NCBI GenBank assembly: GCA_050012475.1
Contig: JBEKHC010000012.1
Span: 74 to 64,073 of the forward strand
Reading direction: 5' to 3'
Source: Candidatus Velthaea sp.
GTDB lineage: Bacteria > Vulcanimicrobiota > Vulcanimicrobiia > Vulcanimicrobiales > Vulcanimicrobiaceae
Length of the DNA: 64,000 bases
Position 1 is the first letter of the stretch, and the number at the start of each line of letters is the position of its first letter. This document shows positions 15,224 to 53,549 of the stretch, in pieces. Position numbers and translations under genes: made by a program. The notes below the pieces were generated by a model. The model was given only the letters and a program-made list of their open reading frames with translations, searched no databases and was not told where the DNA came from.

Positions 15224-15296
15224 CTGGGGCGGCTGGACTCGAACCAACGCATGCCAGAGTCAAAGTCTGGTGCCTTACCAACTTGGCTACGCCCCA
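15224..15296 (-). tRNA. tRNA-Gln (anticodon UUG)
   Basis: Hand-folded cloverleaf. Acceptor UGGGGCG/CGCCCCA with U1-A72 and G73. D arm GCC/GGC. Anticodon stem CCAGA/UCUGG with loop CUUUGAC. T arm GUUGG-UUCGAGU-CCAGC. CCA is not encoded. Confidence 0.9.
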
Positions 15297-16611: not shown

Positions 16612-16630
16612 GGACTGCTCCTTCTTCCCA

Positions 16631-16773
16631 ACACCTACGGGGTTAGTTGACGGATTAGGACGGAAAGAATCGCCCTCGGGCCGACCGGCCCGTTCACCCC
16701 ATGTCGGTGCGCGTTGCGAAACGCTCCCGACAACCGGAATCCCCCGCTCCGGCTCTCTACCGGACTCGGTGAC
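16631..16773 (-). promoter_or_regulatory. cyclic-di-AMP riboswitch (ydaO/yuaA class) in the NlpC/P60 leader
   Basis: The minus-strand leader reads CACCGAGUCCGGUAGAGAGCCGGAGCGGGGGAUUCC...CAUGGGGUGAACGG...GGGCGAUUCUUUCCGUCCUAAUCCGUCAACUAACCCCGUAGGUG. This matches my recollection of the conserved ydaO blocks (GAGCGGGGGA, GGGGUGAA, CCGUCAgCUAACCuCGUAaGcG) and the P1 closure CACC/GGUG. The SD and GTG follow within 20 nt. Confidence 0.7.
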
Positions 16774-16926
16774 ACTAGCAGATACGACGAAATACCCACG
16801 ACTGGGTACGCTTCAGTCGCTGAGGTGAGCTTGCACTCACCACAGCTTACTATATCGGTTGGGCTCTCATTTCCTTTTAGCCATGTGCTGCGCGACGCAA
16901 TCGTGCCGTCCTTCGCTATTACGACA

Positions 16927-26980: not shown

Positions 26981-29737
26981 ATGGAGCCTGCCACCGTCGG
27001 TCCGGCGCAGTCCGTCACCACGCTCTTCATCAGCCGAGCCGGCGCCGATGCCGACATCGCTGCGGCAGCCGCACGTGCGCTGCAATCCGCCGGCTACGGC
27101 GTGATTCTGCAGCAGTGGGATTTCGCCAATCGAAATTTCATCGAGCGCATGCATGAAACGCTCAGCAGCGGCGCGCGCGTCATCGCCCTGCTATCGCCCG
27201 CCTACCTGCGCAGCGATCATTGTCAGGCCGAGTGGATGAATGCGATTGCCGACGACCCGCTCAACCGTAAACGGCGGTTGGTCGTCCTGCGCATCGCCGA
27301 CTGCGAACCGCCGGGGCTGCTCGCCGGGATCGCCTATTGGGATCTCGTACCGGTTCGCGACGACGCGACGCTGTTCGCCCAGGTCGTCTGCGCGGCGGTG
27401 AGCGACGACGGAAGTGATGCGGTCGCGTCCGCCGCCGGCTATCGGTGCGAACCGCGCGCCGCGCCGGCTCCGCGTCCGCCGGTTCAAACCAATTTGCCCG
27501 CCGAACTCAAGAGTTTCGTCGGCCGCGAAACGGAAGTCGCCGAGATCGCCCGGCTGCTCGAAAATGCCCGCCTCGTCACGCTCGTCGGCGTGGGCGGCGT
27601 GGGCAAGACCAGCTGTTCGCTCAAAGCCGGAGCTTCGCTGGCCGCTAGCCGGCCGGACGGGGTCTGGTTCGTCGACCTCGCGCCGATCACCGACGCGACC
27701 CTCGTCGACGCCGAAGTTGCGGCGGTGTTTTCGCTCGTCGAAGCGTCGAATCGCTCGATCCTCGACCGGCTCGTCAAGCATCTGCGACCCAAACACACGT
27801 TGATCTTGCTCGACAATTGCGAGCACGTGCTCGCTGCGTGCTGCCGGCTGGCCGAGGCGGTGTTGCGCGCGTGTCCCGAGGTATCGCTGCTCGCAACGAG
27901 CCGCGAAGCGCTCAAAGTCGACGGCGAACGCGTGTACGCGATGCCGACGCTGGCCGTACCCGAGCGCAATGTGCGCCTCACCGTCGACGCGGCATCGAAA
28001 TACAGCGCGATCGCACTGTTCGTTGCGCGCGCCAGCGGGGCCGATTCCCGTTTCGCCTTGACGGCCGAAAACGTAGCCAGCGTCGCGGAGATCTGCCGCC
28101 GGCTCGACGGCATTCCGCTGGCGCTCGAACTAGCCGCGGCGCGCGTTCGCGTGCTGGCGCCGCGTCAACTCGAGCAGAAGCTCGACGAACGTTTCCGCAT
28201 TCTCACCGGCGGAGCGCGGACCGCGCTGCCGCGTCAGCAAACGATGCGCGCGCTCATCGACTGGAGTTACGATCTGCTCGACGCGCGCGAGCGATCGCTC
28301 TTGAGCAAGCTCTCGATTTTCGCCGGAAGTTTTTCGCTCGAGCCGGTCATCGCCGTTTGCAGCGATGCTGACTACGCCGATTTCGAAGTGCTCGACGGCC
28401 TGACGTCGCTGGTCGACAAATCGCTGGTGGTTGCCGAATCCTCGGACCTCGAAACGCGCTATCACCTGCTCGAGTCAATGCGGCAATATGCGCGCGAGCG
28501 GCTCGACGAGTTCGGGTCACGCGCTCCAACGGAGCGCCGGCACGCGCTCGCGTACACGGAGTTAGCCGAACAGCTCGAGAACGACTATGGGAGCACGCTG
28601 TATCGAACGTGGGTCGCCGGCGCCGAGCGGGAGATCGAGAACATTCGCGCCGCGCTGACGTGGTCGTTCGGGCCGCAGGGCGATGCCGCAGTCGGGCTGC
28701 GGCTCGCCGCAACGCTGCGCCGCATCTTCAACACTTCGCTGCCGGCCGAAGGCCGGCGTTGGATTCAAACGGCACTCGGACGGGTGGACGCCGGCTCAGC
28801 GCGCAACGTCGTGGCCCGGCTGGAGTTGGCCGATGCGCATCTGGCCTCGCGGCTCAACCAGCTGGATGCCGCGCTCGCGGCGGCGCGCCGCGCGCTGACC
28901 TCTTTCGAGGCCGACGGCGATCCGCGCGGCATCGCGAACGCGAAGCGCTGGGCGGGCCGTTCGCTGATCTATTTGGGTCAAGTGAGCGAAGGTGAAGAGC
29001 TGTTGCGCAGCGCGCTCGAGACCTACGAAACGCTCGGCTTCCGGAAAGTCGGCGGCGTCTTGCTCGATCTCGGCTCGGCGCGCTCCGCTTGCAGCGACAT
29101 CGCCGGTGCGCGCGGTTTTTTTGCGCGGGCACTCAACCGCTTCGAGGAAGATCAGGACGAAGGCAACGTCGCGATTGCGGCGGGAACCCTGGCCGAAGCC
29201 GAATTTCATGGCGGCGATGCGCAGGCGGCCGTCGCGCATGCGCAAGATGCGCTTTCCACTGCGCAACACCTTGCGCGCGACATCCTTGCCTGGCTTCAAA
29301 ACAACCTCGCGGCATACGCGATCGCGCTCGATCGATTCGACGAAGCGGGCCGGTACTCGGAACAAGTGCTGCAAAGCAGGCTCGAGATTCAATCGGAATT
29401 TTTGTTCGTCGTCGCATTGCAGCATGCGGCCGCGGTGCTCGCACTCGCACCCCCTGTGGATGCGCCGGGTACCTGCGCCGCGACGTGCCAACTGGGGGCG
29501 CGTTTGATCGGCTACGTCGACGAACGGATGCGCGCGATGGGCGCAAAGCGAGAGTTCACCGAGCAGTCGGATTACGATCGGGCGATGGCGCTCCTGACCG
29601 AGACGTTGGGTACTGCGGCGCTCGGCACGCTCGTGCTCGATGGAGCGAAGCTTTCCGAAGAGCAGGCGGTTGGATTGGCCTTGGCGGCGTCTGTGCGCCG
29701 GCCAAATCACGCTGCGATCGGCCGCGTTTCGACCTGA
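26981..29737 (+). CDS. TIR domain - NB-ARC/COG3903-type STAND ATPase - TPR-like repeat protein
   Basis: The N-terminal TIR_2-like block reads TLFISRAGADAD...VIALLSPAYLRSDHCQAEW. It is followed by FVGRETEV, Walker A LVGVGGVGKTS, Walker B TLILLDNCEH and the GLPL-type motif LDGIPLALELAAAR. About 400 aa of helical TPR-like repeats close the protein. Confidence 0.75.
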   Translation: MEPATVGPAQSVTTLFISRAGADADIAAAAARALQSAGYGVILQQWDFANRNFIERMHETLSSGARVIALLSPAYLRSDHCQAEWMNAIADDPLNRKRRLVVLRIADCEPPGLLAGIAYWDLVPVRDDATLFAQVVCAAVSDDGSDAVASAAGYRCEPRAAPAPRPPVQTNLPAELKSFVGRETEVAEIARLLENARLVTLVGVGGVGKTSCSLKAGASLAASRPDGVWFVDLAPITDATLVDAEVAAVFSLVEASNRSILDRLVKHLRPKHTLILLDNCEHVLAACCRLAEAVLRACPEVSLLATSREALKVDGERVYAMPTLAVPERNVRLTVDAASKYSAIALFVARASGADSRFALTAENVASVAEICRRLDGIPLALELAAARVRVLAPRQLEQKLDERFRILTGGARTALPRQQTMRALIDWSYDLLDARERSLLSKLSIFAGSFSLEPVIAVCSDADYADFEVLDGLTSLVDKSLVVAESSDLETRYHLLESMRQYARERLDEFGSRAPTERRHALAYTELAEQLENDYGSTLYRTWVAGAEREIENIRAALTWSFGPQGDAAVGLRLAATLRRIFNTSLPAEGRRWIQTALGRVDAGSARNVVARLELADAHLASRLNQLDAALAAARRALTSFEADGDPRGIANAKRWAGRSLIYLGQVSEGEELLRSALETYETLGFRKVGGVLLDLGSARSACSDIAGARGFFARALNRFEEDQDEGNVAIAAGTLAEAEFHGGDAQAAVAHAQDALSTAQHLARDILAWLQNNLAAYAIALDRFDEAGRYSEQVLQSRLEIQSEFLFVVALQHAAAVLALAPPVDAPGTCAATCQLGARLIGYVDERMRAMGAKREFTEQSDYDRAMALLTETLGTAALGTLVLDGAKLSEEQAVGLALAASVRRPNHAAIGRVST

Positions 29738-44065: not shown

Positions 44066-45412
44066 ATGTCATTTCCCAAGAAAGTCACAATGCGTCACTT
44101 ATTTCTCCCGAGCGCGATAACGTTAGCTCTCGCACTGAGCGCCTGCGGCGGGTCGAACAGCGGCACCGCCCTTCCGCAACAATCGACGTTGACGACGTCG
44201 GCACAGCGGACGTTGCGCGCACCACTCGGATCGAAGAGCATTCTGCCCGAGACGAGTGCTACCACCACGCAAGCGGGACTGTGCACGAAACCGGCAGATG
44301 CAGCGCATGCCGGCTGTTTCGCGACGATCCGCACCGACTCGGTGATCAGTTCGATCTTCCCGGACTCCGTCTGGGGTTTGACTCCCAGAGATTTGAGTTC
44401 ACTCTACGCGTATCCGGCTCCGGGATGGCAAGGAACGGCAGGCGCCGGCCAGACCATCGCGGTCGTCGTTGCTGGTGACTACGAACTGGCCGAATCCGAT
44501 TTGGGCGTCTATCGCTCGCACTTCAGCCTGCCGCCCTGTACGACGGCCAACGGCTGCTTCAAGAAAGTCGGCGCCGCCGCGACCGGGCAGACCGCCCAAA
44601 CCGGCAGTTCGGCGTCGGTGTCGGCGCATCCAACGACTGCGACGGCGATCGGCTGGGCCGGCGAAACCGACACGGACACGCAAATGGTTTCGGCCGTCTG
44701 TCCGAATTGCAAAATTATCGTCGCCGAAGCGGCATCGGACAGCATGACCGACCTCGGCATGGCCGTGGAGGCCGCGATCGCCGCGAACGCTTCGATCATC
44801 AACGTGAGCTTCGGCGCCACCGAGAGCAGCAGCGACGTTGCGTGGTCTTCGCAGTACAACGGCATGAAACACGTGAAATTAGTTGCCGCCGCAGGCGACT
44901 GGGGCTACGGCGTGTACTACCCGGCGTCGGATCCCAGCGCGATTGCGGTCGGCGGCACCTCGCTCTCCGCGAGCGGCTCGACGATTTCCGAAACCGCGTG
45001 GGCCGGGACCGGCAGCGGCTGCAGCGCATACTTCAGCAACCCCGGATGGCAGCATCCGCCGTCGGTCACCGGCACCTGCACGCGGCGCAACGTCGTCGAC
45101 GTCTCGGCCGTGGCCGATCCGCTGACCGGCGTGGCCATCTACGACAGCTCGCTCTTCGGTATCGTCGGCGGCTGGTCGATCTTCGGCGGCACGAGCGTCT
45201 CGGCGCCGATCATCGCCGGGATGAATGCACTCGCGGCCAATACCGCGCGCGGCCAAGGCGCACAACTCCTGTACAGCGCTGCTTCGTCTGCCTTCCTCCC
45301 GGTGACGAGCGGTTCGAACGGAACCTGCAGCCCGCAGTATCTGTGCACGGCGCTCACGGGCTACAACGGCCCGACGGGACTCGGTATTCCTCAAGGGCTC
45401 GGCGGCTTCTAG
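44066..45412 (+). CDS. S53 (sedolisin-like) / S8 superfamily serine peptidase, lipoprotein
   Basis: The lipobox reads LALALSAC. IAVVVAGDY...DLGVYRSHFSLPPC, GWAGETDTDTQM (Glu/Asp block) and the C-terminal GGTSVSAPIIAGMNAL (catalytic Ser) are present. No long pro-domain is seen. Confidence 0.6.
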   Translation: MSFPKKVTMRHLFLPSAITLALALSACGGSNSGTALPQQSTLTTSAQRTLRAPLGSKSILPETSATTTQAGLCTKPADAAHAGCFATIRTDSVISSIFPDSVWGLTPRDLSSLYAYPAPGWQGTAGAGQTIAVVVAGDYELAESDLGVYRSHFSLPPCTTANGCFKKVGAAATGQTAQTGSSASVSAHPTTATAIGWAGETDTDTQMVSAVCPNCKIIVAEAASDSMTDLGMAVEAAIAANASIINVSFGATESSSDVAWSSQYNGMKHVKLVAAAGDWGYGVYYPASDPSAIAVGGTSLSASGSTISETAWAGTGSGCSAYFSNPGWQHPPSVTGTCTRRNVVDVSAVADPLTGVAIYDSSLFGIVGGWSIFGGTSVSAPIIAGMNALAANTARGQGAQLLYSAASSAFLPVTSGSNGTCSPQYLCTALTGYNGPTGLGIPQGLGGF

Positions 45413-45418
45413 GCCGCC

Positions 45419-48013
45419 GTGGTCCCGCATATGGATAGCCGACGAGCGAGGATTCAAGCGGCAATCGGCCGCGCCTCACACCTGCCGGTGACACTTCTGG
45501 TGGCGCCGGCAGGAACGGGAAAGAGCACAGCACTCGGACATTTCCTCGAATCGATCGATGAATCGGTTGACGGCGCGGCGCTGCGATTCGACGTGCGGGC
45601 CGCGCACACGACCCTGACCCGATTCGTTCGCGGGGTCGCCGCGACGCTCCAGCCCAAACTTCCCAAAGTCTCCCAGTCGCTGTCGATCGCTCATGAGCGC
45701 GCGACACAATCGGCGCGACCCGCCGACGTTCTGGCAATCTGGCTCGCCGAGCACCTTCGCGACACCCGGCGGACCATCGTCATCGACAACTACCATCATT
45801 GCGAGAACGATCCCACGATCGCCGCGTTCGTCGCGGGCGTCGTGGAACGGACCCGGCCCACGACCCGCTGGATCATCGCAACCCGCTCGGCCGCCCAGCT
45901 CCCGTTCGCGACCTGGCTCGCGCGCGGCGACACGACGATGCCGATCGGCGAGGCCCAGTTACGACTCACGGCTGCGGAAGCGGCATTCTATACCGAACGA
46001 ATCGCACCACGGCTCGACGCTCACGCCGCACGACAACTGCTTGAAGCGACGAGCGCTTCGATCGGCCAGATGCTCTTCGCGCTTCAGACTACCGCGGCGG
46101 ACGCCGCGATCGCCAAACGCGTGCTCGACGCAGGCGGGAACGCGTTCGAACGCTGTGTCGACGAGACGCTCGCGCTGCTCACACCCGTCGAACGACGGCT
46201 CGTCATCGAGAGCAGCCGGTTCCCCGATCTCGACGAAACGCTGCTGTCAGCTGCCGGACACCTCGACGCGCATCGCCAAATCGCTTCATTGCAAGCTCTT
46301 ATCCCGCAAGCATTCGAGGGCCATGGGCCGCAGCTTCGCTACAAGACGCTCTTCGCCGACGTGCTGTGGGACCGCCTCGTGGCGCAAGGTGTCGACGCGG
46401 TCCACGACGCGCACGCCCGAACCGGACACGCGCTCGCGACCTGCGACCGCATCGTCGAAGCGCTTGCGTACTACATTCACGGACGTCAATTCAGCGCAAT
46501 TGCGCAACTCATCGAATCACGCGGCCTGGCCTTCGTCGAAGCGGGCTGCGGGGACACGATCCAAGAAGCGATCGAAACGCTCGATCCCATCGCGCGCACC
46601 TCGAGTCCGGTCATTCTCGCGATTCGAGCGACGTTCGAGTCGCGGCTGGGCCGGTTCGATACCGCGGAGTCGTTGTTTCAACTAGCGCTCGACCGTGCCA
46701 CCGACGCCGGCGTCCGCAATCACATCGCTTACCAATACGGAACGCACTTGCTGCGGTTTCAGCGCCCCGAAGCGATCGAATTGCTCGAAACACTCGCCGA
46801 AGACGGCCGGGCATCAGGCGATCTGCGCTGCTACGCGCGCTCGGCGCTCGGACCCGCCTACGTCTTCGCGCGTCGGTATGACGAAGCGTTAGCCAGCATC
46901 GATGCTGCGCTAGAGCTCGCCCAGACATCGTTCAGCACACACCTGCGGGCGAGAGCCTTCCATCAAGCCGCCTACGTCGCACTGTTTCGGGGCGACGGCG
47001 CACGGGCGAAAACGTTGGCAACGCTCTCACTGGAACTGGCGGAACGGGACGGCTTCTTCGACATCTCCGCCGGTGCGTTGACCGTGCTCTATAACGTGGC
47101 CTCAGACCTCGAGGACGATCCGCTCGAAAGCCTGCGTCTGCTCGATGCGGTCGCGGAATGTGCCGCCAAGTCGGGCAGTCTCACCAACCATCTCTTGGCG
47201 CTGGTCGCCAAACTCGAGATCGAAGTCGAACGCGGCGACGAAGACGCGATCGGCGAACTCGACGAGAAACTCCGCACGATCGACGTGCAAAGCTGCGGGC
47301 GCGCGATGTATGAGGCGCTCGTCGCTTCGCAGGCCTTGCGCGCCGGCTGGGACGGCGATTTCGCGGGCGCGTATCATTTGCTGTTGTCGAGCGCCGAATT
47401 GCAGTGGAGCGCCGACCGGAAAGCGCTGCGCTGGGCCGAGATTTCCGTCTATGCGGCCGCTGCCGGGTTGGCCGTCGAAGCGACGATGGCCGTGCGCTCG
47501 TCGGTCGAGTTGCTCGACTCGCTCGCGGGCGGACATCGGATCGCGCGCGCTCGCCTCTTTCTCGCACTGACGATGATCCTCTTAGGGCGGATCGAATCGG
47601 CTGCTGAACTCTTCGAACTCATCGATGCCGATCCGCATGCTTCGTCACCGCGGCTGCAGGCGCTGCGCCGAGCGCTGCAGGCGCTCTCCGAGCGGTATCG
47701 CGGAATTCGAAACCAAGGCGCCTTGATCGGCCTGTTTCAAACGCTCGCCGAGCAGCAGTTCGGCGGCGTGGCGCGCATGATCATGACTTTCCCGCTGGCC
47801 GACAATGCCACGCTGCGCCTGGGCAGCCTCAATTGGGGCGAACGCTCGATCCTGGCCAAGCTGACGCGGGGCGACCTGCTCGTCAGCGCGCGCCAAGTCG
47901 AAACGATCGTCGCGAAACTCGGTTGCCACGACATCGCGACGGCCATGCGGGCCGTCACGCGCAACGCTCACTCGCCCGAACTGGGCGCCCACGTCATCCT
48001 CCAGGAGGCCTGA
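45419..48013 (+). CDS. MalT/LuxR-like STAND ATPase regulator
   Basis: Walker A reads LLVAPAGTGKST and Walker B reads TIVIDNYHH. A long helical repeat region follows. The short, degenerate C-terminal LuxR-type HTH reads ERSILAKLTRGDLLVSARQVETIVAKLG. GTG 45419 or ATG 45431 lies 7-19 nt after the peptidase stop. Confidence 0.7.
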   Translation: MVPHMDSRRARIQAAIGRASHLPVTLLVAPAGTGKSTALGHFLESIDESVDGAALRFDVRAAHTTLTRFVRGVAATLQPKLPKVSQSLSIAHERATQSARPADVLAIWLAEHLRDTRRTIVIDNYHHCENDPTIAAFVAGVVERTRPTTRWIIATRSAAQLPFATWLARGDTTMPIGEAQLRLTAAEAAFYTERIAPRLDAHAARQLLEATSASIGQMLFALQTTAADAAIAKRVLDAGGNAFERCVDETLALLTPVERRLVIESSRFPDLDETLLSAAGHLDAHRQIASLQALIPQAFEGHGPQLRYKTLFADVLWDRLVAQGVDAVHDAHARTGHALATCDRIVEALAYYIHGRQFSAIAQLIESRGLAFVEAGCGDTIQEAIETLDPIARTSSPVILAIRATFESRLGRFDTAESLFQLALDRATDAGVRNHIAYQYGTHLLRFQRPEAIELLETLAEDGRASGDLRCYARSALGPAYVFARRYDEALASIDAALELAQTSFSTHLRARAFHQAAYVALFRGDGARAKTLATLSLELAERDGFFDISAGALTVLYNVASDLEDDPLESLRLLDAVAECAAKSGSLTNHLLALVAKLEIEVERGDEDAIGELDEKLRTIDVQSCGRAMYEALVASQALRAGWDGDFAGAYHLLLSSAELQWSADRKALRWAEISVYAAAAGLAVEATMAVRSSVELLDSLAGGHRIARARLFLALTMILLGRIESAAELFELIDADPHASSPRLQALRRALQALSERYRGIRNQGALIGLFQTLAEQQFGGVARMIMTFPLADNATLRLGSLNWGERSILAKLTRGDLLVSARQVETIVAKLGCHDIATAMRAVTRNAHSPELGAHVILQEA

Positions 48014-48021
48014 GTCGTTCG

Positions 48022-48969
48022 ATGCTTACCCTCAACGATCCGCAAAAATATCTCGATCGCTGCCGTGACGAAATCGTTTGGCGCATCATCAGCGACGGGG
48101 TTCTCGAAGGGCAGCGGACGCTCGCGGTCGGTGTCGTCGCCGAAGAATTCTTCGATCGTTTGATGATCGCGCTCGAGCGCAGCTCGTATCTCGACATCGT
48201 CACCTGGGTGGACCGGATTTGTGAATCGTATCGCGGCTTTCCCCAAATTGGTTCGATGCTCGCCAGCGCGTGCCGGTCGGTCATCGCGCAACTGGGCGAC
48301 GCGGAAGTGGGGGCTGACGAACTCGTGCGCGGCCTCGGCGCACTCGAACACTCGATCTGCGCGGTCGCCTTCAAGCCGCGTCCGCTGCGCGTCAAGTCGG
48401 AGGCTCCGCTGGATGAAGTCGACGTCCTGATCCGGGGACTGATCGATCGCCTCGAGGCAGCCGATCCGCTGTCCGCCGAACATTCGCTCGCGGTGTCCGC
48501 TTGGTGCCGGCGCATCGGGCGGCGGCTCTCGCTTTCGGAGACCGAAGTCACCTACATCGCACGCTGCGGCCTCATGCACGACGTCGGCAAAGTCAAAGTC
48601 GCCGGTGAGATTCTCACGGCGCCGCGCGCCTTGACCGACAGCGAATGGGTGGTGATGCGCTCGCATTCGCTCGCCAGCGAAGAGATCGTGGGCGCGCACA
48701 AAGCGTTGCGGAGCTTCGCGCCCGCCGTGCGGTCGCATCACGAGCGCCTCGATGGCCGGGGATATCCCGACGGCCTCGTCGGTTCACAAATTACGCTCGC
48801 GACGCGAATCGTCACGGTCGCCGACGCCTTCAACGCGATGATCGGACGCCGCGCCTATCGGCTGCCGATCTCGCCCGAAAACGCGCTGGACCGTTTGCAC
48901 GAAAACCGCGGCGGTCAATTCGATCCGATCGTCGTCGAAGCGATGGCCAGCGTCGTCGGACACAATTGA
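48022..48969 (+). CDS. HD-GYP domain protein (c-di-GMP phosphodiesterase class)
   Basis: GLMHDVGKVKV and HHERLDGRGYPDGL are present. ATG 48022 has AGGAGG inside the last codons of the upstream gene. The ORF-track start at 47833 is overlap junk. Confidence 0.8.
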   Translation: MLTLNDPQKYLDRCRDEIVWRIISDGVLEGQRTLAVGVVAEEFFDRLMIALERSSYLDIVTWVDRICESYRGFPQIGSMLASACRSVIAQLGDAEVGADELVRGLGALEHSICAVAFKPRPLRVKSEAPLDEVDVLIRGLIDRLEAADPLSAEHSLAVSAWCRRIGRRLSLSETEVTYIARCGLMHDVGKVKVAGEILTAPRALTDSEWVVMRSHSLASEEIVGAHKALRSFAPAVRSHHERLDGRGYPDGLVGSQITLATRIVTVADAFNAMIGRRAYRLPISPENALDRLHENRGGQFDPIVVEAMASVVGHN

Positions 48970-48979
48970 CAGCAGCGTG

Positions 48980-48996
48980 GTTCAGCTGCGCTGAAC
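48980..48996. terminator. 7-bp perfect hairpin between convergent genes
   Basis: GTTCAGC-TGC-GCTGAAC. No flanking U/A tract, so termination function is unproven. Confidence 0.25.
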
Positions 48997-49000
48997 GCGC

Positions 49001-49088
49001 GGCGTTCGGCGCTTCGGGCCAAGCCGCGGCGGCGTTTGGCGCTTCGGGCTATGGTGCGTCGCGTTTCGGCTGCGCCGGAAAGTTCGGT
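49001..49088. repeat. about 30-bp periodic degenerate direct repeat (3 units)
   Basis: GGCGTTCGGCGCTTCGGGC (49001) and GGCGTTTGGCGCTTCGGGC (49031) differ at 1 nt. A weaker third copy, GCGTTTCGGCTGCGCC, starts at 49061. Confidence 0.6.
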
Positions 49089-50662
49089 TAGACCTCTTGC
49101 GCGTGGGAGAAGATCGCGGTGAGTTCGGCCGGGTCCGTGTACACGCCGCCCAGCGCCGCCAGCCGATCCATCACCGTCGTCATGCCGAGCCGGACGATCC
49201 ATTCGGCAGCGGCCTCGATGCTTGCCGGATTGCCGCCCAGATGACGGATCAGCGCGCGGCCCGCAGCGGCATCGCCGCCGCCGTGAAAGGCCAGTAAGGC
49301 TAACGCCGCTTCGTCGTCGAGCGGAGGAACGACGATCGTTCGTTCAGCAGCGATGCGCAGCGGCGCATCCGCGGCTGCGACGATCGAAACACTCGACGTC
49401 CGCTCGCAAAGGTGGCTGCACAGAGCGCGGATCTCGGTTCGCGCGTGCTGCACATCGTCGAGAATGACGATCGCTTGGCGATCCGCAAGAAAATCCGTCA
49501 CCGCGTCGAGCGCGCCTCCCGGGTCGATCGAGAGGTCGCACGCGGACGCTAAGGCGATCGCGGGGTCGATATCGGCGCGCAGCAGTTCGGATTCGACAAA
49601 CACAACGGGGCGGTGAAGCCGGTTTGCAGCTTGTTCGGCGACCAGCATGAGCAGCCGGCTCTTGCCGACTCCCGGCGCGCCTACGATCGTCAGCATGCGC
49701 GTGTGGTGCAGGGCCGACATGATCCGCGCAAGATCGTCGTCTCGGCCGAAGCTGGGAGCGTCAGCCGACGCGAAGGTGTTGCCCCGTCCGGTCAGCTTGG
49801 CGACGACCGGGGCCTTTGAGACAAAGGTTCCCGCGCAGATGCGATTTCGCCCGAAGCGCTTTGCTTGGTACAGCGCACGATCGGCCTCTTCCACGAGTTC
49901 GGTCATCGTGCGTTGACCGGTTGGATTCGCTGATGCGAGTCCCGCACTGAGCGAAACACGCCCGAGCGTCGTGCCGGCATGTTCGATATGCAGCGTCGCG
50001 AGCCGATCGAAGACATGCTGCACTTCCTCGACGGCGAGCTCCAGCGACGTTTCTGCAAAAACGAGCGCGAACTCTTCGCCGCCGTAGCGAGCCGCAAAGC
50101 CGTCGTCTCCGTCGCGCCGCTTGACCAGCAGCGAGGCAACCTGCTGGAGACAACCGTCACCGGCGATATGTCCGTATCGATCGTTGTACGGTTTGAAATA
50201 GTCGACGTCGACGAGCGCCATGACGAGCGAACTCCCGCGCGTTGAAGCGCGATCCCACGCTTCGGGCAGATGTTCGTCGAAAGCCCGCCGGTTCGGGATG
50301 CGGCAAAGCGAGTCGACGTTCGCCGTTTCCCCGTCGCGCCCGCGCCGCTCCGGGCGCTGACGGTAACCGATCGCCGCCGCAAGCGGCGCTGCTAGGAGTT
50401 GCAGGCTTTCTTCGGTCTCCCTTGCAAGCGCTGCTGTACCCGCATGCACCCGCATTATGCCGATAACCTTGCCGTCCAGGCGAAGCGGAAACTCGGTGCC
50501 CGGCTTGCTGCTTGCGCCGGCGCAGGCTAACAGAATCTCGATTCGGGCCGGGTAAACGGCGGCGCTGAGCGCCGCTTCGACGTTTGCGATCAGCGACGGA
50601 AGCGAACTCGGCGTTTCCACAGCAGCGGCGATCGCTCGCAGCGCCGTTGGCAATAGCAGCAT
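49088..50662 (-). CDS. GAF-like - GGDEF (GGEEF) - C-terminal STAND-type P-loop NTPase fusion
   Basis: ATG 50662 (MLLLPTALRA). The GGDEF domain reads NRRAFDEHL..ALVDVDYFKPYNDRYGHIAGD...ARYGGEEFALVF...ALYQAKRFGRN. It is followed by FGRDDDLARI, Walker A LTIVGAPGVGKSRL, Walker B AIVILDDVQH and the GLPL-like motif LGGNPASIEAAAEW. No repeat sensor domain follows. Confidence 0.75.
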   Translation of the reverse strand: MLLLPTALRAIAAAVETPSSLPSLIANVEAALSAAVYPARIEILLACAGASSKPGTEFPLRLDGKVIGIMRVHAGTAALARETEESLQLLAAPLAAAIGYRQRPERRGRDGETANVDSLCRIPNRRAFDEHLPEAWDRASTRGSSLVMALVDVDYFKPYNDRYGHIAGDGCLQQVASLLVKRRDGDDGFAARYGGEEFALVFAETSLELAVEEVQHVFDRLATLHIEHAGTTLGRVSLSAGLASANPTGQRTMTELVEEADRALYQAKRFGRNRICAGTFVSKAPVVAKLTGRGNTFASADAPSFGRDDDLARIMSALHHTRMLTIVGAPGVGKSRLLMLVAEQAANRLHRPVVFVESELLRADIDPAIALASACDLSIDPGGALDAVTDFLADRQAIVILDDVQHARTEIRALCSHLCERTSSVSIVAAADAPLRIAAERTIVVPPLDDEAALALLAFHGGGDAAAGRALIRHLGGNPASIEAAAEWIVRLGMTTVMDRLAALGGVYTDPAELTAIFSHAQEV

Positions 50663-50783
50663 CCGTTCGTAATTTCGGCAATTCTGCACGGAAAACGATG
50701 CTGCTGCCCGGCGCGAGCGTTTTTCGCAGCCCAATTGGGTCGCGCGCAGGCGCGCGCGAGGCCATCTTTACCGAGAAAAAATG

Positions 50784-51110
50784 CTACCCGGCGGTCTTAC
50801 GCGGATGTTTGCGCGGACGGCGCACGGGCGTGGCCGACGGGCCCGTCGCGCCGGAACCGTTAGCCGATTCCCGCGCCGGTGCCGGCACCTGCGCTTGATG
50901 CGTTATCGTCCCGATCTGCGAGCCCAGGACGTGCCGTACCGTCACGTCGTGAATCGAAGCGAGGAAATCGTCGTCAACGAGAAACACGTCGAAAATTCCC
51001 GGCACGCGTTCCTTGAGTTTCACGATTTCCGCCGGCGGTTGAGGTTCGAGTTCCGGTGCGATGACTTCGATCGCCCGATAGAGGCGGTTCGCGGCATCCT
51101 GGAGGTTCAT
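50784..51110 (-). CDS. hypothetical small protein upstream of the GGDEF-NTPase gene
   Basis: ATG 51110 with AAGGAG upstream. The product begins MNLQDAANRLYRAIEVIAPELEPQPPAEIVKLKERVPGIFDVFLVDDDFLASIHDV... and has a basic, disordered tail. Confidence 0.45.
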   Translation of the reverse strand: MNLQDAANRLYRAIEVIAPELEPQPPAEIVKLKERVPGIFDVFLVDDDFLASIHDVTVRHVLGSQIGTITHQAQVPAPARESANGSGATGPSATPVRRPRKHPRKTAG

Positions 51111-51362
51111 GAGCCACTCCTTTCCTCGGCGGCCAGACGCCCCGGTTGGGTCGACGCCGCAGTCGCGCGCGGAAGTTCACGATAATCCGCGGTGCTCGCT
51201 CGGACGGCGAGCCGCAAGCTTGGGGACATCGATCATATCATGCCGGTCGTTATCCCGAAACGGACGAGCAGCACTATTCTTTCGAGCGGTCTCGCTCCAT
51301 TTGGAGCGCCGCCCAAAGAACACGGCGGGTGACGGTATCTTCGCTGAAAAACGGAAGCGAAC

Positions 51363-53549
51363 TTGATGCGGAAACGACCTGACATTCTGCCGCCGGGGGC
51401 GCAACCGTTTTCGGAACGTGACGGTGCAAAGATCGAAGCAGCCCTGCGCGCCCGGGCGAGCGGCGATCTTCCCCGAACGCGGCATCGTGACGGCACCGTC
51501 CCACGTTTTGTCAATCGGCTCATCCTCGAGACCAGCCCGTACTTGCTCCAGCACGCGCACAATCCCGTGAACTGGTATCCGTGGGGCGATGACGCGTTTG
51601 CGGAGGCACAGCGCGGCGGGAGGCCCGTCTTTCTCTCGATCGGCTACTCGACGTGCCACTGGTGTCACGTGATGGAAGAGGAATCATTCGAGGATCTCGA
51701 GATCGCACGCTTTCTAAACGAACGGTACGTCGCAATCAAAGTCGATCGCGAAGAACGCCCCGACGTCGACGCCGTCTACATGACCGCCGTTCAGACGCTG
51801 GGTCGCGGCGGCGGTTGGCCGATGAGCGTGTGGCTGGACGCCGATCGGCGCCCGTTTTACGCCGGCACCTATTTTCCGGCGCGCGACGGCGACCGCGGCG
51901 GAACGAGCGGGTTCCTCTCGCTTCTGCGCGGGTTGGCTGACGTCTACCGCGCCGAGCCGCACCGGGTCGCCGAAGCGGCGCAATCGATCACCGCCGCGAT
52001 CCAAGCGGCGATGGCCGGCAGCTCAACCGGCGGGACCGTTCCGGGAGTCGGCATCCTCGCGGCCGCGATGGACTTCTGCCGCCAGGTGTACGATCCGGAA
52101 TACGGCGGCATGCGCCGAGCACCGAAGTTTCCAGCGAGTTTTCCGGTGCGTCTGCTGTTGCGGCAGTATCGGCGAACCGGCGACGCCGCATTGCTCGCGA
52201 TGGCGGAGCATACGCTGGAAATGATCGCTGCGGGGGGCATGCACGATCAGCTCGCGGGCGGTTTTCATCGGTATTCGACCGATGAGCGATGGCTGGTTCC
52301 CCACTTCGAGAAGATGTTGTATGACAATGCGTTGCTCGCGCTCGCGTACGCGGAGGCGTGGCAGGTGACCAAGCGCCGCGACTTCGCGCGTATACTCCGG
52401 ACGACGCTCGACTACGTGCTGCGCGAGATGAGCTCGCCGGACGGCGCATTTTTTTCGGCGACCGACGCGGATTCCGAGGGCGAGGAAGGGACATTTTTCG
52501 TTTGGCCCGAGGACGAGATTCGGACGTTGCTCGGTGCGGCCGCGGAACGTTTCATCCGCTTCTACGGGGTGACGCCGCGGGGCAATTTTGAAGGCCGGAA
52601 CGTGCTCTTCGTCCCGCACCGCGACGAAAACGAGTGGGAGGCGCTCGGCGAGGCGCGCGAGATTCTCCGGGCAGCGCGCGAGGCGCGCCCGCATCCGCTG
52701 CGTGACGAGAAGATTCTTGCGTCGTGGAACGGGCTGATGATCTCAGCGCTTGCCGTCGGCGGGCGAATCGCGGCGAATCCACGTTACGTCACCGCCGCGG
52801 CGCGGGCCGCGACGTTCGTTCTCGACAACCTGTGCCGGGACGGCCGCTTGCAGCGCAGTTGGCGGGACGGCCGGACCTCCGGGCTCGGCTTCCTCGAAGA
52901 CGATGCGTTCTTCACCGCCGGGCTGCTCGATTTGTACGAGGCGACGTTCGATCAACGCTGGCTCGCCCAAGCGTTGACGCTGGCCGAAAGCACGCAACGT
53001 CACTTTGCCGATGACGACGACGGCGGCTGGTTCCGTACCGCCCGCGATCACGAAAAGCTCGTCGCGCGCGAGAAACCCAAAAATGACGGTGCCGAGCCCA
53101 GCGGGGCGTCCGTGGCGCTGCTCAATGTCCTGCGGCTGCATGCGTTCACCGGCCAAGACCGTTGGCGGCAAATCGCGCAACACGCGCTGCGCGCGTACGC
53201 ACCGGCGCTCAACGAGCAGCCCGCGGCATTGCACGAGATGTTGCTCGCGCTCGATTTCTTCACCGACGAACCACTCGAAGTCGTTCTCGTCTGGCCGTCC
53301 GCGCAGCATGGTCCGGCCGCCTTCACCGATGCGCTGCGACAGATATTCCTGCCCAATTGCGCGCTGCTCGGTGCCCGCGAAGGCGAGCAGCTTCACGCTT
53401 TGGCGCGCCTCGCCCCGATCGTCGCCGGCAAAGCCGCGGTCGCGCAATGTCCCACCGCTTTCGTGTGCACGCTGGGAACCTGCTTTCTTCCGACGACGGA
53501 ACCGGCTGTCATGGAAGACCAGCTGATGCGACTTCGAGCACCACGCTAA
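51363..53549 (+). CDS. thioredoxin-domain (DUF255) / six-hairpin glycosidase-like protein, YyaL family
   Basis: [25 protein letters not shown]...[21 protein letters not shown]. The protein has the long (alpha/alpha)6 body typical of the family. Confidence 0.85.

Follow-up and report, generated by a model that had tools for sequence, protein, structure and literature searches.

Among described proteins, those of the Mycobacterium tuberculosis Rv0386 / Rv1358 / Rv2488c type have a class III cyclase-NB-ARC-TPR-LuxR architecture, in which a dimerising cyclase lies N-terminal to a nucleotide-binding oligomerization domain (NOD) of the COG3903/NB-ARC type. Diguanylate cyclases (DGCs) such as WspR, PleD and DgcB combine an N-terminal sensor and a stalk helix with a GGDEF domain, and for PleD and WspR it is established that activity of the GGDEF domain requires a correctly oriented dimer. 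NB-ARC modules, as found in Apaf-1, CED-4 and plant NLRs, self-associate through the surfaces of their nucleotide-binding domain (NBD) and first helical domain (HD1) when nucleotide-bound, and the truncated plant NLRs known as TN and CN proteins carry an effector head on an NB module without a repeat sensor of their own. Here we analyse a gene from Candidatus Velthaea sp. whose product has a small GAF-like N-terminus (mini-GAF), a GGDEF domain and a C-terminal NBD-HD1 module, and which we refer to as DGC-NTPase. It lies on the minus strand at positions 49088..50662 of a 64,000-nucleotide stretch (the window) of contig JBEKHC010000012.1, and was recognised as an open reading frame (ORF) with Pfam matches to GGDEF, AAA_16 and AAA_22.

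DGC-NTPase resembles the class III cyclase-STAND proteins in that a dimerising cyclase precedes a NOD of the same type, but those proteins have a cAMP cyclase fold and product and are full-length, with a winged-helix domain (WHD), TPR repeats and usually a helix-turn-helix (HTH) domain. It shares with WspR, PleD and DgcB the GGDEF fold, the A-site residues and the order of N-terminal sensor and stalk helix; unlike them it has no canonical I-site and possesses an extra C-terminal P-loop module, and its sensor would be a GAF remnant of about 100 residues rather than the receiver domain of canonical DGCs. The NBD and HD1 fold, the GxP motif and the Walker motifs are held in common with Apaf-1, CED-4 and the NB-ARC of plant NLRs, whereas WHD/ARC2, an MHD-equivalent motif and HD2 are missing and the sensor-1 Arg is replaced by Asp. 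An effector head on a sensor-less NB module also makes the truncated TN and CN proteins a useful analogy. Judged by these likenesses, DGC-NTPase appears to combine two known designs, the cyclase-on-STAND proteins and the sensor-stalk-GGDEF cyclases.

A conserved gene of the Eremiobacterota

DGC-NTPase is a real, conserved gene of an Eremiobacterota (Vulcanimicrobiota) bacterium. The ORF encodes 524 amino acids (aa) from an ATG at 50662 to a stop codon at 49088-49090, and both its extent and the motifs quoted in an earlier, sequence-only note (ARYGGEEF, FGRDDD, GAPGVGKS, IVILDD and LGGNPASIEAAAEW) are all present. The window has a G+C content of about 65%, a protein 99% identical to the window DGC-NTPase (P0001) sits on a 270-kb ENA/NCBI contig, and the nearest named relatives come from Vulcanimicrobiaceae / Eremiobacterota metagenome-assembled genomes (MAGs). 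We aligned 20 full-length orthologs sharing 39-74% identity (alignment A1), from which the invariant residues named below are taken. Since all 20 end 35-45 residues past the GxP motif, giving a uniform length, faulty assembly does not account for the C-terminal truncation. Compared with the window protein, mean identity was 62% for the GGDEF domain, 60% for the NBD, 55% for HD1, 45% for the linker and 41% for the N-terminus, the least conserved folded part. The C-terminal module is therefore under constraint, being about as conserved as the cyclase.

A longer reading of the ORF from a TTG at 50734 is available. The in-frame stretch that precedes the ATG (50663-50734, minus strand), …SFSVQNCRNYERM, is similar to the N-terminal extensions with which P0003 and P0004 were called (…QFSWRNCRNLKEM and …QFSRRYCRTYNDM). 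This likeness would mean either that the true start lies upstream, at the TTG, or that a leader sequence is conserved. A promoter and terminator scan of 48800-51400 found nothing above shuffle expectation.

A STAND-type NBD and first helical domain follow the cyclase

The C-terminal module of DGC-NTPase is a STAND-type NBD plus first helical domain of the NB-ARC/COG3903 clade. The NBD spans residues 305-445 (49328..49750, minus strand) and contains an FGR motif, the Walker A motif GAPGVGKS(R), the Walker B motif IVILDD, a sensor-1 position and an ER pair at residues 440-441. It is followed by HD1 (ARC1; residues 446-524; 49091..49327, minus strand), delimited by alignment and entirely helical in an AlphaFold2 (AF2) model, which carries the GLPL-like GxP motif as LGGNP and ends in a short variable tail. 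Pfam AAA_16 matched residues 305-424 with 37.6 bits against a cut-off of 32.6, and AAA_22 scored 33.9 bits against 27; the matches of the window protein to nSTAND1/3/6 and NB-ARC were below threshold. The NB-ARC profile was matched to position 131 of 248 by the window protein and over positions 13-208 of 248 by a family member, P0126, which reaches the NB-ARC cut-off (26.2 bits against 23.5).

Structure prediction gave the same picture. The AF2 model of the module was confident (pLDDT 91.4, pTM 0.86), and its top Foldseek match was ADP-bound Apaf-1 (1z6t, E 6.6e-7), with further matches to NRC3 (query-normalised TM 0.70), Sr35, ZAR1, CED-4 and AAA+ proteins of the Cdc6/ORC type. The structural matches 1z6t, 9ria, 7xc2 and 2a5y share 13-17% sequence identity with the module, and a sequence search of the PDB with the C-terminal profile returned only weak P-loop matches, to a designed protein of the P-loop type (2e-5) and to ADR2 and MLA13 (0.004-0.035). 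The earlier note had read the C-terminal half as an NB-ARC/COG3903-like P-loop NTPase, which these searches bear out, and had likened it to the NTPase of a TIR protein encoded elsewhere in the window, with which we found 28% identity over 160 aa (E 3e-5). That protein (918 aa; 26981-29737, plus strand) has a TIR-NOD-WHD-TPR architecture with a NOD of the same COG3903/NB-ARC-type clade and, unlike DGC-NTPase, keeps the WHD, an ATSR sensor-1 motif and the TPR region.

When aligned with this TIR-STAND protein and with longer relatives described below, the short family to which DGC-NTPase belongs spans the hhGR motif, Walker A, Walker B, the sensor-1 strand, GE..PL and the GxP helix, with LGGNP of the window protein aligning with DGIPLAIELAA of the long relatives. 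The short family has a deletion of about 10 residues in HD1 and stops about 40 residues after GxP, where the long relatives start their winged-helix domain (…LDWSY…RYxLLE). In this alignment the winged-helix domain (ARC2/WHD) is absent from DGC-NTPase; a Pfam search detected no repeat family in the protein, and no residues are left for a C-terminal repeat sensor. The absence of a repeat sensor had been pointed out before, but this understated the loss, which extends to the winged-helix domain. Likewise, the description of a STAND scaffold holds for the NBD-HD1 portion and fails for the switch as a whole, since there is no WHD and the sensor-1 Arg is Asp. DGC-NTPase is thus not a complete STAND NTPase, lacking as it does WHD, repeat sensor and sensor-1 Arg, and is better described as the bearer of a STAND-derived NBD-HD1 module.

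Within NBD-HD1, residues G306, R307, G328, G331, G333, K334, S335, R336, D402, E440, R441, G477 and P479 are invariant in the 20 orthologs, and 26 columns are invariant in a 16-sequence alignment of the C-terminal part. The nucleotide-binding residues are among those invariant in the orthologs, with the Lys and Ser of Walker A (K334, S335), the first Asp of Walker B (D402) and the Gly and Pro of GxP (G477, P479). Residues linked to hydrolysis vary more: the second acid of Walker B, next to D402, is Asp in 11 of the 20 orthologs, and the sensor-1 position is Arg in 8 of 20 family members; the window protein reads AAAD here, with Asp at that position. This pattern fits nucleotide binding better than regulated hydrolysis, and the module should still bind nucleotide.

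GGDEF domain, linker and GAF-like N-terminus

The GGDEF domain occupies residues 114-274 (49841..50323, minus strand; Pfam E 7.8e-40). PF00990 was matched over its full length (profile positions 1-161 of 161) with 136.7 bits against a cut-off of 23.8, and NCBIfam TIGR00254 scored 142 bits against 37.4 (E 1.4e-41). The active site is complete. Residues D152, D154, K157, N160, D169, RYGGEEF at 192-198, K268 and R272 are invariant in the orthologs, in line with the intact GGEEF site reported previously. Foldseek searches with the full-length AF2 model found the active cyclases WspR, DgcB and GcbC as best matches (35-42% identity, target-normalised TM 0.80-0.87), including coiled-coil-GGDEF constructs with a stalk. 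By every feature testable in silico, DGC-NTPase belongs to the GGDEF family.

The metal-binding and GTP-contacting residues of the domain include the equivalents of PleD N335 and D344. In Hypr GGDEF domains, which produce cGAMP, Ser or Thr replaces Asp at the D344-equivalent specificity position. A Hypr-type cGAMP product was rejected for DGC-NTPase because the Asp at this position (D169, in a GHIAGD motif) is invariant, and the product is most likely cyclic di-GMP (c-di-GMP). The canonical RxxD I-site, through which DGCs of the PleD / WspR type are product-inhibited, was sought five residues upstream of GG[D/E]EF with the expression R..D.{5}GG[DE]EF. None of the 23 short-family members has it, whereas 4 of 5 long relatives do; in the window protein an RDGD lies two residues away from the canonical position.

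Residues 1-102 (50357..50662, minus strand) form what the secondary structure of the AF2 model depicts as a small GAF-like sensor remnant, an aa-bbb-a module of about 100 residues with a long stalk helix (81-102). The likeness to GAF that had been proposed for this region is weak by sequence: Pfam GAF scored 16.4 bits against a cut-off of 22.4 (E 0.013), over the last 40 profile positions only (94-133), with a faint match to Pfam GAF / GAF_2 near residues 58-98. The long relatives have a true GAF in this position (P0031 matches GAF_3, E 1.8e-9), and the N-terminus looks like a reduced GAF. A flexible linker of about 30 residues (277-304; 49751..49834, minus strand), with pLDDT below 50 at residues 287-300, connects the cyclase to the NBD.

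A probable offshoot of a larger Eremiobacterota family

We built a profile (A2) from residues 296-524 of 16 orthologs and used it in an exhaustive search of 1.84 billion representatives, in place of a word-indexed search that used just the last 230 aa and had given six matches, mostly fragments. A scan of genome contigs with a single peptide pattern returned two species representatives, a figure that is unusable as a count of taxonomic spread. Matches, at profile positions ~3-210, numbered 80,480 at E<=1e-3 and still 49,046 at E<=1e-10, and only about a dozen representatives, DGC-NTPase's own family, scored below 1e-48. Among the 56 nearest NOD relatives, Pfam recognised NB-ARC in 44, a class III cyclase in 15, BTAD in 11, Trans_reg_C in 7, GerE in 6, and TIR_2 and GGDEF in 3 each; two of the GGDEF-bearing relatives were confirmed as short-family proteins, the third being P0125, and one other relative has a protein kinase head. 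The class III cyclase, BTAD and TIR output domains of these relatives sit where the GGDEF domain sits in DGC-NTPase, as expected from the earlier proposal that a cyclase occupies the effector position.

The nearest relatives outside the family are Eremiobacterota proteins of 735-1100 aa with a (GAF)-GGDEF-NB-ARC-HTH_77/WHD-TPR architecture. These long forms (for example P0029, P0030, P0031 and P0034), annotated as 'diguanylate cyclase' and uncharacterised, share with the short form the GGDEF subtype, the NOD clade, the phylum and the motif order (hhGR, Walker A, Walker B, GE..PL, GxP), and the NODs of DGC-NTPase and P0029 are 34% identical across the NBD (E 6e-13). Unlike the short form, they keep the WHD, the TPR sensor, an ATSR sensor-1 motif and, in 4 of 5, the RxxD I-site. 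In a search with P0029, 88 of the best 120 clusters had a GGDEF domain on a STAND-TPR scaffold and 19 a class III cyclase; the remainder had TIR, BTAD, XRE-HTH or no recognised head, some being partial sequences. The named matches were nearly all from Eremiobacterota, the exceptions being one Sulfotelmatobacter MAG and one Verrucomicrobiae MAG. The GGDEF head on a STAND scaffold is thus common in Eremiobacterota. Clustering of the short form gives about 26 groups at 90% identity and about 12 representatives at 50%, and its sequence suggests that it is a truncated offshoot of this large, uncharacterised (GAF)-GGDEF-NOD-WHD-TPR family.

Matches outside Eremiobacterota with more than 40% query coverage (P0033 from Gordonia, P0027 and P0040) were rejected as tandem-GGDEF proteins rather than STAND fusions. 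Our literature search on GGDEF with STAND, NB-ARC or AAA_16, and on c-di-GMP in Eremiobacterota, found no title or abstract on such a fusion. The components are well known, and databases contain many proteins of the long architecture; undescribed are the short form and the conserved association of its gene with genes for a MalT-like STAND protein and an HD-GYP protein. At the one long-form locus that we looked at, that of P0030 (L012, 2676-4956), the gene is followed with a 4-nt overlap by one for a protein with cNMP_binding and Peptidase_M50 domains and by a small Frankia_peptide-like ORF; no HD-GYP or MalT-like neighbour was present.

DGC-NTPase adjoins a conserved trio of genes

Three co-directional genes on the plus strand end shortly before the convergent DGC-NTPase gene. 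Two of them, which always accompany the MalT-like gene named in the earlier note, had been overlooked there. The first encodes an S8/S53-like peptidase of 448 aa (44066..45412; Pfam Peptidase_S8 E 3.9e-10) with a lipoprotein-type signal. Its sequence has the lipobox LSACGG, an E-x-x-x-D motif (GETDTD) and GGTSVSAP, some orthologs are without any Pfam match, and by eye it resembles a sedolisin (S53) rather more closely than it does a subtilisin of the classical kind.

The second gene (45419..48013) encodes a MalT-like STAND NTPase of 864 aa with a NOD and a TPR-like region, for which AAA_22, TPR_12 and NPHP3_N were above Pfam cut-offs. It shares an AAA_22 NOD and a TPR-like arm with MalT of E. 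coli, but differs from it in its sub-cut-off score, the lack of a detected GerE/LuxR HTH and the HD-GYP gene immediately 3'. Identity with the MalT equivalog was ruled out, as NCBIfam MalT (NF003420), aligned over residues 8-526, scored 77.3 bits against a cut-off of 537, and the Pfam GerE/LuxR HTH was not detected in the window protein or in five orthologs. The C-terminus (window 47850-48013; columns ~810-860 of alignment A4) looks like a shortened LuxR-type HTH, L..ER..L......V.KLGC…RA. Orthologs are 51-72% identical, with a mean column identity of 71% and intact Walker A, Walker B and ATRS motifs, and a WHD_MalT match was recorded for those in L006/L007 and, faintly, L010. At its N-terminus the protein carries no effector domain.

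The third gene (48022..48969) encodes a candidate c-di-GMP phosphodiesterase of the HD-GYP type, 315 aa in length (Pfam HD_5, 104.5 bits against a cut-off of 27.2, E 6.7e-30). The HDxGK and HHExLDGxGYP motifs, the latter reading HHERLDGRGYP in the window protein, are intact here and in all nine orthologs checked. Its start lies 8 nt after the stop of the MalT-like gene in the window, and the two genes overlap by 4 nt in L004 and L010.

We assessed synteny by gene calls and by tblastn, in which the window proteins were searched against 25 loci. The order S8-like, MalT-like, HD-GYP is intact in every locus with enough sequence. The DGC-NTPase gene adjoins the trio in 10 distinct loci and in three arrangements: convergent, after the HD-GYP gene (window/L001, L002, L004/L016, L010, L014, L024), co-directional and downstream of the trio (L003), or divergent and upstream of the S8-like gene (L006/L019, L020, L022). 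Because the linkage survives gene rearrangement, it argues for functional coupling of DGC-NTPase and the trio. Around the cluster lie housekeeping or metabolic genes (TonB receptor, ABC-F, ribosomal protein S20, PriA), which are syntenic between genomes. L016 (7668-19096), which covers the same region as L004, has two tandem copies of the whole trio beside a single DGC-NTPase gene. In one locus only, L002 (6978-7778, 15018-17441), the four genes are bordered by a flagellin gene and a HAMP-MCPsignal-PilZ chemoreceptor gene, which hints at a motility or chemotaxis output.

The earlier note had offered two candidate partners for DGC-NTPase. A neighbouring 108-aa ORF was discarded, as it matched no Pfam, NCBIfam or PADLOC family and had no homolog in the 24 other loci. 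The MalT-like protein fared better, being encoded next to DGC-NTPase in the loci listed above, but a BLAST comparison of the two NODs detected no similarity (best E 12); close homology thus lends no support to a mixed ring, and the idea of such a ring is weakened. A search of PADLOC-DB with the cluster proteins gave marginal matches only (Cas10 palm, E 8e-4, and mad8, E 3e-3, for DGC-NTPase; a generic Cas3-HD for the HD domain).

At the gathering threshold, Rfam detected no RNA element near the DGC-NTPase gene in a search of the whole window, the only matches lying at 15-17 kb. These are a tRNA gene (15224-15296, minus strand; RF00005, 65.9 bits) and a c-di-AMP riboswitch (16617-16781, minus strand; RF00379, full-length match, 69.6 bits against a gathering score of 38), a second cyclic-dinucleotide element of the window that is unrelated to the GGDEF gene.

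A possible make-and-break c-di-GMP module

Tentatively, and with slightly more doubt than confidence, we favour a reading in which NBD-HD1 is a nucleotide-binding self-association or docking domain and the four genes constitute a make-and-break c-di-GMP module. DGC-NTPase would be a cytoplasmic diguanylate cyclase, most likely making c-di-GMP, and the ATP (or other NTP) bound by its NBD-HD1 remnant would have a chiefly structural role. Nucleotide-bound NBD-HD1 would drive or stabilise self-association, holding two or more GGDEF domains productively and adding a second hold on their geometry beside the N-terminal stalk. Since the lack of a WHD would preclude an ADP-locked closed state, control would have to rely on the mini-GAF and stalk, on how much nucleotide is available and on joint expression with the neighbouring operon. 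The opposing activity, given the loss of the I-site, would be that of the adjacent HD-GYP protein, and the MalT-like protein would act as the signal-sensing regulator of the module.

Several points weigh against this self-association reading. Synthesis of c-di-GMP, nucleotide binding and oligomerisation by DGC-NTPase are all predicted, and classical STAND oligomerisation uses a WHD/HD2 rearrangement that is impossible for this protein. The full-length AF2 model leaves the domain arrangement undefined (pTM 0.47), and the sensor-1 Arg retained in 8 of 20 family members leaves room for a role of hydrolysis in some of them. Three copies of the operon (L015, L017 and L018) have no DGC-NTPase gene within 3-6 kb, and L011 has DGC-NTPase without the operon, in the same metagenome (Ga0116227) as L015 and L017; these unlinked cases show that the two can function apart, at least in cis. 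In L011 the gene lies between TonB-dependent receptor and ABC-F genes, where other genomes also have the trio, and the trio copies on other contigs of Ga0116227 suggest that the operon was relocated rather than lost. Finally, adjacency could reflect transcriptional co-regulation only.

The same gene linkage, kept in 10 distinct loci despite three arrangements, would also fit a physical partnership, in which NBD-HD1 binds to or assembles together with the MalT-like STAND protein, and perhaps also HD-GYP, so that ligand sensing occurs in trans. By analogy with sensor/helper NLR pairs or plant TN proteins, the ligand might switch such a complex between c-di-GMP synthesis and degradation. The two proteins are complementary in what they lack, the well-conserved MalT-like protein (71% mean column identity) having no effector domain and DGC-NTPase neither WHD nor sensor, and the MalT-like and HD-GYP genes are closely spaced or overlapping. 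Against this stand the absence of BLAST similarity between the NODs, the placement of the DGC-NTPase NOD in the COG3903/NB-ARC clade and not the MalT clade, and the unlinked loci L011, L015, L017 and L018, and we consider direct partnership unlikely.

We regard as similarly improbable that the degenerate P-loop domain is an allosteric nucleotide sensor, which reports ATP/ADP or GTP or binds c-di-GMP in place of the I-site. The loss of the canonical I-site throughout the short family and its retention in most long relatives would agree with such a role, as would binding residues that are invariant while hydrolysis residues vary, and c-di-GMP binds the AAA+ domain of FleQ. However, we know of no c-di-GMP-binding motif in NB-ARC-type domains, the sequence offers nothing that separates this proposal from the assembly model, and the invariant ER pair at 440-441 and the conservation of HD1 would be left unexplained. 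Elements of both proposals might be joined in a ligand-gated 'c-di-GMP signalosome', in which NBD-HD1 acts in trans as an adaptor to the MalT-like STAND and HD-GYP proteins, toggling synthesis and degradation, with the P-loop site maybe serving as a feedback site that replaces the I-site. We think this quite unlikely; if true, it would be the logic of sensor/helper NLR pairs applied to second-messenger metabolism.

That the C-terminal module is a functionless, decaying leftover of a truncated GGDEF-STAND-TPR gene, and DGC-NTPase an ordinary GAF-GGDEF cyclase, seems very unlikely. The losses of WHD and TPR, of the sensor-1 Arg in 12 of 20 family members and of about 10 residues of HD1 are what decay might produce, but the NBD has kept a mean identity close to that of the GGDEF domain (60% against 62%) down to orthologs that are 39% identical, with the 26 invariant columns noted above, a uniform length in 20 orthologs and a confidently predicted fold (pLDDT 91). 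Least credible of all is an anti-phage or conflict system, analogous to TIR-STAND and Avs proteins, in which a STAND/NLR-like defence sensor has a GGDEF head that makes an alarm nucleotide: the same NOD scaffold does carry TIR heads in Eremiobacterota and a TIR-STAND protein is encoded 20 kb away in the window, but the PADLOC matches are sub-marginal, DGC-NTPase has no repeat sensor with which a phage protein could be recognised, the syntenic genes on either side are of housekeeping or metabolic type, and D169 specifies the canonical GTP substrate.

Implications

STAND/NLR-type ATPases are thought to activate their outputs by nucleotide-driven proximity, and as GGDEF domains need to dimerise, a fusion of the two would allow this idea to be tested with a product that is easily measured. 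If the C-terminal module were inert or purely structural, DGC-NTPase would be one more sensor-cyclase among many. The pairing with a MalT-like STAND protein and an HD-GYP protein suggests that one sensor may be wired, in an undescribed way, to both the making and the breaking down of c-di-GMP. The phylum concerned, the Eremiobacterota, is known mainly from metagenome-assembled genomes. These bacteria hold two versions of the cyclase-STAND design, a full one with sensor, WHD and TPR and a minimal one with NBD-HD1, and comparing the two could show which STAND parts are sufficient for effector activation.

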